Virus record (IMG/VR): IMGVR_UViG_3300023106_000005
Location: 1-51,743 of that record
Length of the DNA: 51,743 nt
Strand: one strand, 5' to 3'
From: a virus
Lineage: Duplodnaviria > Caudoviricetes
Below are positions 12,059 through 44,775 of the stretch, in pieces (within the stretch, counting starts at the first letter, position 1; each line of letters opens with the position of its first letter). A model generated the notes under the pieces. It was not told the DNA's origin. It saw nothing but the letters and a program-made list of their open reading frames with translations, and did no database searches. Made by a program: the position numbers and the translations under genes.

Positions 12059-12860
12059 AAAAAATAAAAAATGTTTTATATATACGGAATTTATTCTTCT
12101 GAAAACAATATCATAAGATATATAGGTTTTACTTCAAATCTATATGAAAGATTAAAAGAACATCATAAAGACTTAAAACGTAAAAAGGTTAATACTCATA
12201 AGAAAAAATGGATGTTAAAATGTATAAATAATGGACATAAATTTGATTATATTATTTTAGATAGTTCTGAATCTAAAAGTATAATATACGAATTGGAAAA
12301 ATATTATATAAATAATTACAGTTTAATAACAAAATTGGTTAATGGCACTTTAGGAGGCGATGGTGTAACTATGACTGAAGAAATTAGGAAAAAAATATCT
12401 GTTGCCAATAAAGGAAGAAAAATGACTGAAGAAAATAAAGATAATTTAAGAATCTTAAGACTAGGGACTAAACTATCCGAAGAAACAAAAAAGAAAATGA
12501 GTGATACTCATAAAAAAATTGGCACTAAAATTATTATAACAGATGAAATAAGAAAAAAATATAGCGACAGAATGAAGGGAAGTGTTGTTTTAATGACAGG
12601 TAAAAAGCACACACAAACAACAATAGAAAAAATTAGAAAAGCAAAATTAGGATGTGTTTCTAAGAAAATGAGAGCTGTATTACAGATTGATTTTAAAACT
12701 AAAAATGTTGTTAATACTTTTGAAAGCATTACATTAGCAACAAAAATAACAGGAATAAACAATATACATAGGTGTATTGTAGGAAAAAGAAAAACAGCAG
12801 GAAATTATGAATGGAAATATAAATTATGACGAATTGTCGATAGCAAGAATAAAAGAATTT
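12020..12860 (+). mobile_element. 820-bp homing endonuclease insertion bounded by 21-bp direct repeats (20/21 identical)
   Basis: ATAGAAAGAATAAAAGAATTT (12020-12040) and ATAGCAAGAATAAAAGAATTT (12840-12860); internal TATATTTG promoter at 12044-12051. Confidence 0.75.
12071..12829 (+). CDS. GIY-YIG homing endonuclease with NUMOD3 repeats and NUMOD1-like C-terminus
   Basis: YIYGIY...RYIGFT..L.ERL.EH; repeats MTEEIRKKIS, LSEETKKKMS, GKKHTQTTIEKIR; C-terminal FESI..A...RKTAGNYEWKY. Confidence 0.9.
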   Translation: MFYIYGIYSSENNIIRYIGFTSNLYERLKEHHKDLKRKKVNTHKKKWMLKCINNGHKFDYIILDSSESKSIIYELEKYYINNYSLITKLVNGTLGGDGVTMTEEIRKKISVANKGRKMTEENKDNLRILRLGTKLSEETKKKMSDTHKKIGTKIIITDEIRKKYSDRMKGSVVLMTGKKHTQTTIEKIRKAKLGCVSKKMRAVLQIDFKTKNVVNTFESITLATKITGINNIHRCIVGKRKTAGNYEWKYKL

Positions 12861-38432: not shown

Positions 38433-39869
38433 ATGGAAGACGAATTAACGGTTAGCGAGATAATATCAGCTGATTTAACCAAAGCAATTACAACGCTTAC
38501 TTCTCAATCAAAAGATAAAAAGATCATTGAGAATTACGTTAAAGAATATACTAACTTAGATCGTACTATTCGTGATACTCAGGTTGGAAATGTTCAAAAA
38601 GATAAAACAATTGGCACCGGCAACAATCAAAGACTTGTTAAGTCAATCCGATCACCTGTTAACTATCAAAAAAAGATTGTTACTACATCATGCGCTTTTG
38701 AAGTAGGCGAACCGGTTACGCTTTCAACAGCGACAATAAACGATTTGTTTAATGAATTATTGCGTTTGTGGAAATCAAACCGTATTGATGATAAATTACA
38801 AAAAGCAAAAACTACACAGAAAAGCCAAACCGAATGCGCAATTCATTTCTTTATTGCTCCAAAAGCAACAGGAACAAAAGCAACTCAGCCAACAGGAACG
38901 AACGAAAAGATTGATATTAAATCAAATGTTTGGACATGGAAAAACGGATTAATGTCGCCTTATTTTGATGCTACTAATGACATGAAAGCTTTTACTTGGC
39001 AATTCGTCACAAAAAACGCTGAAGGAAAAGATATAAATAATACCTGGATATTCGACGAAACCAATGTTTATAAAATTAGTAACGCATCCGGAACATTGGC
39101 TTTGGATGATACCCAATTACATGGATTCGATCGTATTCCAATTGTTTACATGGAACAGGAATTCCCTGAATGGTATGATGTTGAAGGATTAATCGATCGT
39201 TACGAAGTTGCTTTATCTAAATTGGGAGTTTCAAATGATTATTCCGGCCATCCAATACTTTTGACTTATGGAGACTTAAAAGTGCTGCCTGAAATGAATG
39301 ATGATGGTAAAACAATTAATTTTCCTATTAAGTTTAAAGATGATGATGTAAACAAACCTTATAATGGTGATGCAAAATTCTTAACAAATGATAATGCACC
39401 TGAAGCCGTTAAACTTGAAATGGATACCATCAGAGAGCTTTTATTTTCAATCACTCAGACCCCGGACATATCATTTGAAAAAATGAAAAGTATCGGCGCT
39501 ATTTCAGGTACTGCTTTAAAGCTTATGTTTTTGGACCCAATGATTAAGGCAAAAATGAATGAAGGGCAAAACAGAACCATTGTAGAGCGTATTATTAATA
39601 TTTTAATATCAGGAATAACCGGCGCGGTAAATGTTACCTCTAAGGCGCAAACTAATGAATTGGTTGTGGATGTTAAGTTTAATTCTATTCTTCCATCTGA
39701 TACGCTAGAAAATAGCACAATTGCATCAAACGGATTTAGTTCTCAAAGTATTTCACGTTTAGAAAGAGTTAAGTTATTGGATTTAGTTACTGATGTTGAA
39801 GCTGAGGTTTTAAGATTAGCAGAAGAATTTCCGGAAGCCACAACGGAGGTTGTTCCTCCTGTAGTTTAG
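38433..39869 (+). CDS. Portal protein, SPP1 Gp6-like
   Basis: Follows TerL; HGF.RIPIV, LID.Y....S, TPD.SF......SG.ALK. Confidence 0.92.
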   Translation: MEDELTVSEIISADLTKAITTLTSQSKDKKIIENYVKEYTNLDRTIRDTQVGNVQKDKTIGTGNNQRLVKSIRSPVNYQKKIVTTSCAFEVGEPVTLSTATINDLFNELLRLWKSNRIDDKLQKAKTTQKSQTECAIHFFIAPKATGTKATQPTGTNEKIDIKSNVWTWKNGLMSPYFDATNDMKAFTWQFVTKNAEGKDINNTWIFDETNVYKISNASGTLALDDTQLHGFDRIPIVYMEQEFPEWYDVEGLIDRYEVALSKLGVSNDYSGHPILLTYGDLKVLPEMNDDGKTINFPIKFKDDDVNKPYNGDAKFLTNDNAPEAVKLEMDTIRELLFSITQTPDISFEKMKSIGAISGTALKLMFLDPMIKAKMNEGQNRTIVERIINILISGITGAVNVTSKAQTNELVVDVKFNSILPSDTLENSTIASNGFSSQSISRLERVKLLDLVTDVEAEVLRLAEEFPEATTEVVPPVV

Positions 39870-40016
39870 AATGATTCTTAACAAAATATTTTTTATATTT
39901 GGGTTCTAATCTAAAATAGATATTTAAATATTTTATAATCTAAAAAACATAGCCTATGTAATTATTTAACATTAACTAAAAACTAAACGCATCGCCTTTA
40001 TTGTCGGTGCGTTTTT
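39864..40016 (+). other. Palindrome (39864-39882), promoter (39894-39901) and terminator (39985-40016) enclosing a ~110-nt ORF-less unit
   Basis: GTTTAGAAT-G-ATTCTTAAC; TATATTTG; AAACGCATCG...CGGTGCGTTTTT. Confidence 0.5.
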
Positions 40017-40026
40017 CATTTACGTT

Positions 40027-43411: not shown

Positions 43412-43675
43412 ATGGCAGATATTAAAATTACAGGAACAGTAAAAGAAATCGAAGGATTAAAGCAATCAACTAACGGTTTCAAAACTCAGGAAATAGCAGT
43501 TGATGAAGGCGGCCAATTCGGAACCGTGATTCCTATAAAGTTTTGCGGTGATAAAGGCGTTGCAATTGTGGCTTCTCTGAAAGTGGGTCAAAAAGTAAGT
43601 GTTCAATGCAATTTAAGAGGAACAATTTACAGCGAAAGAAGATTTTTGAATTTGGAAGGTTGGCGAATTGATTAA
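43412..43675 (+). CDS. DUF3127 OB-fold protein (SSB-like)
   Basis: ITG.V.......S.NGF..QE...I.F.GDK......L.VGQ.V.V..NLRG......F..L.GWRI. Confidence 0.85.
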   Translation: MADIKITGTVKEIEGLKQSTNGFKTQEIAVDEGGQFGTVIPIKFCGDKGVAIVASLKVGQKVSVQCNLRGTIYSERRFLNLEGWRID

Positions 43676-43681
43676 AATGTT

Positions 43682-43689
43682 TATATTTG
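43682..43689 (+). promoter_or_regulatory. TATATTTG promoter for the tRNA-like RNA
   Basis: TAnnTTTG ending 4 nt before the predicted acceptor stem. Confidence 0.7.
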
Positions 43690-43693
43690 TTAT

Positions 43694-43926
43694 TCGGGAT
43701 TGGCGGAATAGTGGTAGTAAGGTGTATTTATCCCACAACTAAAACACGTGGTAGACGCTAAAAAAATAGAAGTAAGTGAATAAGTTTTTTTGAATTACAG
43801 AAGCCTGAGTAATAGTCTTATCAATTAAACGAAATCTAACCGAGGATTACAGCCTTATTAATTTAAGTCTCAGGTATCCGTTGAAAAAATCGGTTTCACG
43901 TGAAGGTTCGAATCCTTCATCCCGAA
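43694..43926 (+). ncRNA. tRNA-like RNA (~233 nt): class II (Leu-like) acceptor, D and T arms with large internal insertions
   Basis: Acceptor TCGGGAT/ATCCCGA; TGGCGGAAT...GGTAGACGC D arm; GAAGG-TTCGAAT-CCTTC T arm; no canonical anticodon arm. Confidence 0.75.
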
Positions 43927-43984
43927 CAACTATAGCGAAAGGCGAATTTAGAGAGAAAACAGTAATTAAAAATTGTTTTCATGT

Positions 43985-44013
43985 AAAACCACTCATAATT
44001 GAGTGGTTTTTTT
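43985..44013 (+). terminator. Intrinsic terminator after the tRNA-like RNA
   Basis: AAAACCACTCA-taat-TGAGTGGTTTTTTT. Confidence 0.9.
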
Positions 44014-44031
44014 ATGCCTTTTAGTGAAATA

Positions 44032-44073
44032 ATCTAGAATGAGTATAAATAAGGAATAAATTTTCTACATTTG
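44032..44073 (+). promoter_or_regulatory. 19-bp palindrome (44032-44050) and TACATTTG promoter (44066-44073) of the head-tail operon
   Basis: ATCTAGAAT-G-AGTATAAAT; TAnnTTTG. Confidence 0.7.
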
Positions 44074-44109
44074 TCATTATAAATAACAACAATCTAAAAA
44101 ATTATTTTT

Positions 44110-44775
44110 ATGGCAGTTACAACAGAACAGATTAAGGCACGACTTAAGGTGAAATTTCCTAAGGCGAACTTATCACAAAAAAGGATAGATGCTTTGGCAG
44201 CTAAACTTGCACCAAAGCCAAAAGATGGGGCTACTGATGAAGAGATTGATTCAGTTTTAGAAAATGCAAATGACTTTATATCTTTTGAGGACATCGCTAA
44301 AGAAGATGATCGAATGAGAACATTAGAGGCAAACCAAAAACCTAAAACAGAACCTGCTCCAACTGACCCACCAACACCAAAACCAACTGAACCTGTAATT
44401 ACACCACCTGCCGGTGATGTGCCTGAATGGGCTAAAGCGCTTATTAAGCAAAACGAAACCGTTTTTGCTGAAATTACCGCTTTAAAAACAGGAAATGTTT
44501 TGGCAACAAAAAAGGCAACGGCTGCGGAATTGTTTGGAAAATCTGAAGTGTTGAAAGCTTTAAAAGAAGAGGTTCGCCCAAATTGGATAAACAGAATAAA
44601 TGTAGATTCTGAAACTTCTATTGAAGATCAGATCACCGCATTAGAATCTGAGTACACAATTATAGCGCAATCAAATGCTAATTCAACACCGTATTCCGGA
44701 CCAACTCCAACGGGATTTAATCCAGGAAACAAAGTTGATGATGCGTTAGTTGATTCGGTTGTTGCTTCAATGTAA
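44110..44775 (+). CDS. Capsid scaffolding protein
   Basis: Pro/Thr linker, VPEWAKAL motif, position before decoration and capsid genes. Confidence 0.75.
   Translation: MAVTTEQIKARLKVKFPKANLSQKRIDALAAKLAPKPKDGATDEEIDSVLENANDFISFEDIAKEDDRMRTLEANQKPKTEPAPTDPPTPKPTEPVITPPAGDVPEWAKALIKQNETVFAEITALKTGNVLATKKATAAELFGKSEVLKALKEEVRPNWINRINVDSETSIEDQITALESEYTIIAQSNANSTPYSGPTPTGFNPGNKVDDALVDSVVASM

Follow-up and report, generated by a model that had tools for sequence, protein, structure and literature searches.

Over-long RNAs encoded among the transfer RNA (tRNA) genes of a phage have a decades-old precedent in rnaC and rnaD of phage T4, the species 1 and 2 RNAs, which are 139 and 119 nt long. To our knowledge, neither has a known decoding function. 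They close the T4 tRNA cluster, where the annotation of both reads 'small, stable RNA' (AF158101), and close to the 3' end of rnaC there is a canonical T arm, CCGGG UUCGAAU CCCGG. Here we describe a 233-nt RNA gene of a tailed phage, at positions 43694-43926 of the virus record IMGVR_UViG_3300023106_000005. The whole record, 51,743 nt, was analysed and is called the window below. Like the T4 RNAs, the element is phage-encoded and longer than a tRNA. The initial annotation had read it as a novel tRNA-mimic RNA; it is not a unique object, given the T4 precedent and the widespread phage family to which the element was traced. Its sequence places it in a large phage RNA family in which a leucine-type (Leu-type) tRNA shell is kept and the anticodon and variable arms are replaced by a fast-evolving centre of 20-143 nt. 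We think it probable that the element is a functional, non-decoding tRNA-Leu mimic and that the shell is its selected part.

According to passages of PMC9976931, an E. coli leucine acceptor needs A73, A15-U48, G18G19, A20a and contacts of the D-loop with the T-loop, and both the anticodon and the variable arm are dispensable for leucylation. The same passages describe an engineered 'minimalist' tRNA-Leu that is without anticodon and variable arms and is still charged by leucyl-tRNA synthetase (LeuRS; Larkin et al. 2002, in PMC9976931). The element shares with it a host-identical D arm, A73, U8, A14, A15, G18G19, U48 and the T-loop bases U54 U55 C56 A58, features that those passages name as sufficient for leucylation. 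It differs from both the bacterial class II and the minimalist tRNA-Leu in a 39-nt hairpin beside G18G19 and in its first pair, U1-A72. Unlike a class II tRNA-Leu, it has no anticodon arm and thus cannot decode. Transfer-messenger RNA (tmRNA) is likewise an acceptor and T-arm mimic without an anticodon. In its tRNA-like domain, a long helix leaves the body at the site of the class II variable arm. In contrast to tmRNA, the element has no G3-U70 pair, tag frame or pseudoknots, and no tmRNA match from ARAGORN or Rfam. In YrlA, a bacterial Y RNA, the topology is reversed: the Ro-binding stem is made by the two ends of the RNA, and the tRNA-like part lies inside. What these RNAs share with the element, according to PMC4201824, is that they are non-coding, in some cases phage-borne, and contain a tRNA-like module without an anticodon. 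No Rfam Y RNA match was found in either gathering or E-value mode, and there is no Ro-like gene among the 40 window proteins scanned.

The element consists of the following parts:

43694..43700, plus strand: 5' strand of the acceptor stem, TCGGGAT, with 7 of 7 Watson-Crick pairs to ATCCCGA at 43919-25
43701..43709, plus strand: U8 and G9, the 5' strand of the D stem (GCG, 43703-05) and the 5' part of the D-loop (TGGCGGAAT)
43710..43748, plus strand: 39-nt hairpin inserted in the D-loop, between AAU and UGGUAGA
43749..43758, plus strand: 3' part of the D-loop with G18 and G19, and the 3' strand of the D stem (TGGTAGACGC)
43759..43775, plus strand: A-rich linker of 17 nt where an anticodon arm would be expected to start, unpaired in the minimum free energy structure and in the ensemble
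43776..43899, plus strand: long irregular arm, placed where a class II tRNA has its variable arm, with GUGAA/UUCAC as the closing helix
43902..43918, plus strand: T arm, GAAGG TTCGAAT CCTTC, pair probability 0.99
43919..43926, plus strand: 3' strand of the acceptor stem, ATCCCGA, and discriminator A; CCA is not encoded

The shell is intact throughout. A perfect 7-bp acceptor stem with discriminator A (43926) and no encoded CCA, a canonical T arm and a Leu-type D arm had all been described in the initial annotation, and each was confirmed in the sequence. In the thermodynamic ensemble, the acceptor stem has a pair probability of 0.78, and the D stem (GCG 43703-05 with CGC 43756-58) one of 0.87. 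The base before the T stem, at 43901, is a U, which corresponds to U48. Joined together, TGGCGGAAT and TGGTAGACGC give the same 19 letters as the D arm TGGCGGAATTGGTAGACGC of three tRNA-Leu genes in two Flavobacteriaceae metagenome-assembled genomes (MAGs). Since the two halves are identical to a host-type tRNA-Leu D arm, exactly 39 nt (43710-43748) have been inserted, after AAT.

Relatives of the element were sought by scanning viral contigs for exact copies of the two D-arm halves, 25-55 nt apart. This pattern occurs in 63 viral stretches. Under loose criteria, 54 of them have a T-loop after the pattern and then a 7-mer able to pair with the 7 nt that precede it. Under strict criteria (at least 4 of 5 T-stem pairs and at least 6 of 7 acceptor pairs, all within 300 nt), 43 loci passed, which amount to 39 distinct sequences of 100-200 nt besides that of the window. 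The pattern is absent from all 401 cellular genomes that were sampled in the phylum to which the Flavobacterium MAG belongs. The 40-sequence alignment, window included, has two-sided changes at all 7 acceptor pairs and at 4 of the 5 T-stem pairs. Overall, 11 of the 15 shell pairs covary, with 95 two-sided cells compared to 17.7 in shuffled alignments, and 0 of 500 shuffles reached as high a value. When the partner column was slid by one, pairing in these pre-filtered rows fell from 99.7% to 35-40%. The initial annotation had called for a homolog search and a covariation analysis; the family and its compensatory changes support the core inference of a tRNA mimic. U48 is conserved in at least 90% of the alignment, and the discriminator is A in 28/40 and 55/65 family members, so that A73 is found in 83/105 together.

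An anticodon arm is missing from its canonical place throughout this set. An arm with a 5-bp stem, a 7-nt loop and U33/R37 was not found at positions 26-28 in any of the 40 sequences (window included), and 2 of the 40 have one anywhere. In the window's own 143-nt centre there is none at any offset. The stretch between the D and T arms ranges from 20 to 143 nt and has no common motif. Members with the same shell and the same class of D-loop insert have wholly different centres, and these are weakly structured, with a median z of -1.0 (n=38) in this set and -0.5 in a second shell set. A covariance model built from 37 relatives, with the window left out, matches 43694-43926 over all 155 positions (49.2 bits, E 1.5e-10). 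This was its best match in 86 kb, in a comparison where three Flavobacteriaceae tRNA-Leu genes scored 37.7-41.7 bits. The same model gives T4 rnaC only a partial match of 17.6 bits (E 0.013) and does not match rnaD. The T4 RNAs differ further in that rnaC has no Leu-type D arm, whereas in the present family, whose contigs number well over 100, the shell is constant and the centre hypervariable.

The family extends beyond the shells with a split D arm. The acceptor strand AGTCAGG, common to 21 of the 40 members, also occurs in a shell with a D-loop of ordinary length and no hairpin, which was found in at least 120 viral stretches; the extra D-loop hairpin marks a subgroup to which the window element belongs. 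Among 80 of these AGTCAGG loci there were 83 matches and 72 complete shells, 67 of them distinct, with centres of 23-229 nt. Only 2 of the 67 have a loosely canonical anticodon arm. Some copies (L049, L068) are labelled tRNA-Leu by ARAGORN, yet their 'anticodon stems' are unpaired. Several shell copies can occur on one contig. No description of an anticodon-less family with a Leu-type shell was found in the literature, in a search that covered few subscription journals.

No conserved protein partner accompanies the shell: the largest cluster of neighbouring proteins covers 4 of 44 loci, which indicates that the RNA is the conserved unit. A tRNA or tmRNA gene lies within 2 kb at 15 of the 43 loci, and several elements stand inside arrays of 18-26 tRNAs, a setting like that of T4 rnaC and rnaD. 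Two uncultured phages have a permuted two-piece tmRNA (L060:4940-5084 and L067:4189-4551, both on the minus strand; RF04321, 55 and 54 bits), and the ARAGORN tag of the L067 tmRNA is GKVIRLNNEPLRMSA followed by the stop. In both, a Leu-type shell starts at most about 45 nt after the tag stop.

The favoured fold of the window element consists of the D arm with its loop hairpin, the unpaired linker and a single long arm that ends two bases before the T stem. This arm is closed by GUGAA 43776-80 and UUCAC 43895-99 (probability 0.96), a helix that the initial annotation had not named. A 'multi-helix domain' had been proposed here instead. Its CCTGAG/CTCAGG helix (CCUGAG 43804-09 with CUCAGG 43869-74) was borne out with a probability of 0.98. 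Three others were unsupported, with pair probabilities of 0.00 for the A7/T7 stem, 0.03 for the inner AATTAA/TTAATT stem and 0.005 for the CCG/CGG hairpin. All of these values come from the thermodynamic ensemble. The domain inserted in T4 rnaC is very stable (z -4.57), unlike that of the window element. Inside a predicted single-stranded loop of the long arm, 16 nt (43818-33) are perfectly antisense to positions 30562-77 of the same phage, in the NinG-like mRNA; a match of this length was reached in 22 of 1000 dinucleotide shuffles. A loop motif, GAGUAAUAGU/GUAAUAGU, recurs at varying positions of the scaffold in 8/107 elements, compared to 0.5 in shuffles, although many of the copies are related and not independent. 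It is found at 43807-43816 of the window, in the D-inserts of L054, L057, L075, L081, L082, L093 and L094, and as a second copy in L049.

The D-loop insert belongs to one of several recurrent classes, which the window shares with L060 and L067. Its arms, GTGGTAGTAAGGT and ACAACTAAAACAC (the 3' arm is also given as ACAAYTAAAACAC), match the L060/L067 inserts at 13/13 and 12/13 positions. Between members of the class the apical stem has been replaced and yet still pairs, as GUAGU/AUUAC or, in the majority allele of the window element, as GUGG/CCAC. An expanded D-loop had been annotated initially, and the expansion stands, at 39 extra nt. The hairpin then drawn in it, GTGTATTTA/TAAAACAC, is not the favoured pairing; the relatives point to a GUG/CAC closing stem with the apical GUGG/CCAC stem. 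Inserts of the family as a whole tend to be structured: 33 distinct ones have a median z of -2.24, with z < -2 in 21 of them, and in 25 the outermost ends pair.

Two sister phages, L003 and L004, are 95-97% identical to the window in a neighbouring protein. L004 has the same element with four substitutions and one indel in the A-run, all within the first 101 nt. L003 has identical flanks and a different cassette in the slot (window 43690-43926). This cassette holds an odd tRNA-like gene of 127 nt (L003:2614-2741) with an 8-bp acceptor stem, the T arm GAAGG TTCAAGT CCTTC, a 19-nt D-loop and no anticodon arm. The family model gives this gene 22.3 bits, no other viral contig has it, and a tRNA-Trp(CCA) gene follows it (L003:2747-2818, 59 bits). 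As regards the T4-type arrangement of an over-long RNA beside tRNA genes, the window phage has no tRNA, the L003 slot holds this tRNA-Trp and other family members lie in tRNA arrays. There is no sequence similarity between the L003 cassette and the window element beyond the T arm (z of the comparison 0.98, inner part -0.26). Contigs from three further public runs also have the element: one from leaf litter, which is L004-like, one from rhizosphere (another study) and one from wastewater. Their listed differences fall at five places only (43725, 43747, 43752, the A-run and 43794). No substitutions occur at 43795-43955 in L004/X2 and X3, and the 3' 132 nt of the element are invariant. Exact viral-contig matches to the T-arm/acceptor string and to the downstream flank were found in the two sister contigs alone. 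Neither a stricter split-D-arm pattern nor a gapped pattern taken from the element's centre matched any viral contig, though in the latter case a sister-contig match may be hidden.

The element has diverged less than its surroundings. Between the window and L004, 4 of its 233 positions differ (1.7%) compared to 57 of 499 four-fold sites (11.4%) in six flanking genes (binomial p 2e-8); the figures for the 3' trailer and the spacer are 6/87 and 15/96. This low divergence argues for constraint on the element. The identical run of 161 nt was rejected as proof of selection, as runs of 292, 155 and 120 nt are found in neighbouring genes.

Two features lead us to the reading given at the outset. The shell is kept where both the neighbouring proteins and the RNA's own centre have become unrecognisable, which suggests that the shell is the selected part. 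In addition, its conserved positions coincide with the reported features of leucine acceptors, and we therefore read the element as a non-decoding tRNA-Leu mimic. Such an RNA would be transcribed from its own promoter to its own terminator, and its intact D/T elbow would let it take on the L shape of a tRNA. Host tRNA enzymes would then mature and stabilise it (RNase P, 3' trimming and CCA addition). It would act through its shell, and its likeliest partner may be LeuRS or some other protein that recognises tRNA-Leu by its acceptor end and elbow. Its role would be that of a mimic, a decoy or a charged carrier, not a decoder. A narrower version, which we offer tentatively and do not expect to hold in full, is that the family consists of natural 'minimalist' tRNA-Leu molecules that retain just what LeuRS reads (A73, A15-U48 and the G18G19/T-loop elbow), are leucine-charged or LeuRS-bound without decoding, and sponge or redirect a host activity that handles tRNA-Leu. 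Their targets might then be the synthetase, a defence toxin that modifies acceptor ends or an aminoacyl-transferase, and the D-loop hairpin and the variable centre may tune or diversify the interaction.

Several observations weigh against a functional tRNA-Leu mimic. The 39-nt insert beside G18G19 might abolish recognition by LeuRS, because D-loop geometry matters according to passages of PMC9976931. D-arm conservation in the alignment was fixed by the search pattern and the rows were pre-filtered for acceptor and T-stem pairing, so the compensatory changes and the closure count are the evidence, not the percentage paired. The covariance model scores ordinary tRNA-Leu well and does not separate the mimic from a tRNA. 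Structure is no stronger than expected by chance: z against shuffles is -0.77 for the whole element, -1.0 for the 143-nt centre, +1.59 for the D region and -0.24 for the D-insert, and the window's T at 43725 weakens or breaks the predicted apical pair of the insert. The A-run of the linker has 6, 7 or 8 residues among haplotypes. Within 6.7 kb the identical run of 161 nt ranks only second in length, and the region is a mosaic in which a sister phage has the cassette swapped as a unit, so recent recombination could explain part of the low divergence. Among viral, metagenome and genome contigs searched by protein, the slot is without a tRNA-like element in relatives at 45-59% identity, including phages at 47-59% (L023, 73% identical, offers only 32 nt upstream and falls outside this comparison). 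No cultured phage carries the element, as judged from GenBank phages searched with the element and its flanks, the 221-aa neighbour protein, the L054 member and the shell.

The alternatives begin with the possibility that the shell serves something else. It might be a carrier for an effector in the centre, such as an antisense small RNA, or an RNase P/RNase Z signal like the t-elements of plant mitochondria. We regard this as unlikely, although it would account for wholly different centres under one shell and one D-insert class, for several copies on one contig and for the invariant 3' 132 nt of the window element. The antisense match to the NinG-like mRNA could point to an effector, but it is a single, post hoc match (p about 0.02), and the target is equally conserved, bar one base, in the relative without the element (it is identical in the sister with it). 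Centres are also weakly structured, and in the shortest members just 20-24 nt, for which no structure is predicted, separate the D arm from the T arm. A shell so close behind the tag stop of the L060 and L067 tmRNAs could define the 3' end of that RNA, yet a processing signal would not need conservation of the Leu-specific D arm, A73 and U48. A decaying tRNA-Leu pseudogene, out of use and enlarged by slippage and illegitimate recombination, seems to us improbable. It would explain the 7-nt direct repeat GTGGTAG on both sides of the D-insert, the A/T runs and AAGU-like repeats in the centre together with the polymorphic A-run, the lack of a fold signal above shuffles, a slot that has another cassette in a sister phage and is empty in more distant relatives, and the other odd tRNA-like genes in sister phages. 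It does not explain why all shell stems are perfect, why divergence is so far below that of four-fold sites, or why the insert arms are conserved in the unrelated shells L060 and L067. Compensatory pairing in 39 other distinct shells, and at least 120 further anticodon-less contigs, are also unlike independent decay. The initial annotation had argued that a tRNA mimic, not simple decay, is present, and the 39 other shells, the missing anticodon arms (0/40) and the sub-neutral divergence support it.

Standard detectors do not place the element in a known class, as had been foreseen: ARAGORN at default settings reports 0 genes in the window and Rfam at gathering thresholds 0 matches, and no tRNA gene is called in this phage. 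In E-value mode, RF00005 matches the T arm only (14 bits), with the full cloverleaf not above threshold. Neither a tmRNA nor a group I intron was found up to E=10 (Rfam, with RF00028 run over 43500-44150), in agreement with the initial annotation that the element lacks a recognisable group I core. The same Rfam library found a group I intron in L081 (86 bits), so the negative group I test works. An intron-bearing gene whose RNA would mature by splicing into a functional tRNA, such as a tRNA-Lys(UUU) with a 144-nt intron, appears very improbable to us. With introns allowed, ARAGORN does call the L004 allele tRNA-Lys(ttt) at its default threshold (89 nt plus a 144-nt intron), and this intron would have a U just before it and G as its last base. 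The call is unstable, however, between alleles and thresholds: the window allele is uncalled at default, and once the threshold is lowered it is called as tRNA-Glu with another intron. It also puts the second half of the perfect Leu D arm into the 'intron' and leaves a poor D stem instead, and members with 20-24 nt between the D and T arms are too short for an anticodon arm. We know of no self-splicing intron as small as inserts of 39-144 nt. Contigs of run X8, which is labelled RNA-Seq complementary DNA (cDNA) but was rated probably DNA, tile the unspliced element at a depth of about 3 with no joint, and this run was not used. A miniature tmRNA-like ribosome-rescue RNA, with a UAGUC box before a Leu codon and a long arm at the variable position, is barely credible and was rejected. 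It is true that tmRNA too is without an anticodon, that the window carries GAGUAAUAGUC at 43807-17 and that two family members adjoin a phage tmRNA. Pair 3:70 of the element is G-C (G43696-C43923) and not G-U, as the initial annotation held in denying it tmRNA alanine identity. The frame after UAGUC has no stop before 44024 and is open through the T arm. TAGTC is not enriched, with 5 of 107 family elements having it compared to 14.9 in shuffles. A phage attachment site (attP) copied from the 3' end of a host tRNA was rejected as well: the 24-nt T-arm and acceptor string has 0 exact matches in 185,579 species, one genome per species, and the scan of 40 proteins gave no integrase.

At 51,743 bp, the window is a complete viral record, and its terminal repeats are direct. 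It encodes the tailed-phage proteins large terminase, SPP1-type portal and major head protein, together with RecT, a helicase, NinG and ParB-like proteins and a GIY-YIG/NUMOD3 homing endonuclease. No RNA-repair enzyme was found among the 40 proteins scanned. The 221-aa neighbour protein has relatives on Flavobacterium and Flavobacteriaceae MAG contigs at 45-48% identity, and the genes of the window are without Shine-Dalgarno sequences and have intergenic promoters of the form TAnnTTTG, a motif that we take to be the Bacteroidota -7 element. The host is probably a Flavobacteriaceae bacterium. The neighbours of the element are an SSB-like gene (43412-43675) and the gene that opens the head module (44110-44775), and it is flanked by two predicted signals:

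43682..43689, plus strand: promoter-like box TATATTTG (TAnnTTTG), a few bases 5' of the RNA start
43927..44013, plus strand: 3' trailer and predicted intrinsic terminator, with a hairpin at 43985-95/44000-10 and a T run at 44007-13

The box is one of 11 such intergenic plus-strand sites in the phage, which have a T-rich upstream context in common, and a sigma-70-like site was computed at 43660-43687. These two predicted sites are in keeping with the initial annotation of an own promoter. Its terminator fared less evenly: a perfect 11-bp hairpin whose 3' arm enters a T7 run is present, but the hairpin at 43985-44010 was not listed under the criteria of the promoter/terminator scanning tool. Part of the trailer, 43927-55, is also kept in L003 with its different cassette.

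Other parts of the phage group have comparable features. A second unit of promoter and terminator without an open reading frame, at window 39894-40020, has the TATATTTG box, about 100 nt, a hairpin and a T run. The matching region of sister G001 holds two odd tRNA-like genes, one of which scores 30.9 bits for tRNA, and the window region looks like another small-RNA slot. Just 5' of TAnnTTTG promoters, this phage group has an inverted repeat, TTTAGAATGATTCTAAATA, which occurs in degenerate form in the window, at 39866-39880 and about 44024-44045, and lies upstream of the 221-aa gene in L005, L006, L016 and L017. It resembles an operator. The free-standing GIY-YIG and NUMOD3 homing endonuclease gene is at window 12071-12829. 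At roughly this position, as estimated by offset from the slot with genes unaligned, sister G002 has an array of six tRNAs (L031:1345-1819; Pro, Glu, Gln, His, Leu(TAG) and Arg), and the window phage has none. This recalls SegB in the T4 tRNA cluster.

Phage tRNA genes are usually explained by codon usage or as replacements for tRNAs destroyed by defence systems. An RNA that is unable to read a codon fits neither explanation. The presence of the shell in more than 100 viral contigs and in 0/401 cellular genomes, with no conserved protein neighbour, points to a function that may be exerted by tRNA shape alone. Genes of this kind are invisible to ARAGORN and Rfam at default settings and would thus be missed in phage annotations. 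The T4 species 1 and 2 RNAs have been a puzzle for 50 years, and a family so much larger and more regular may now open it to testing.

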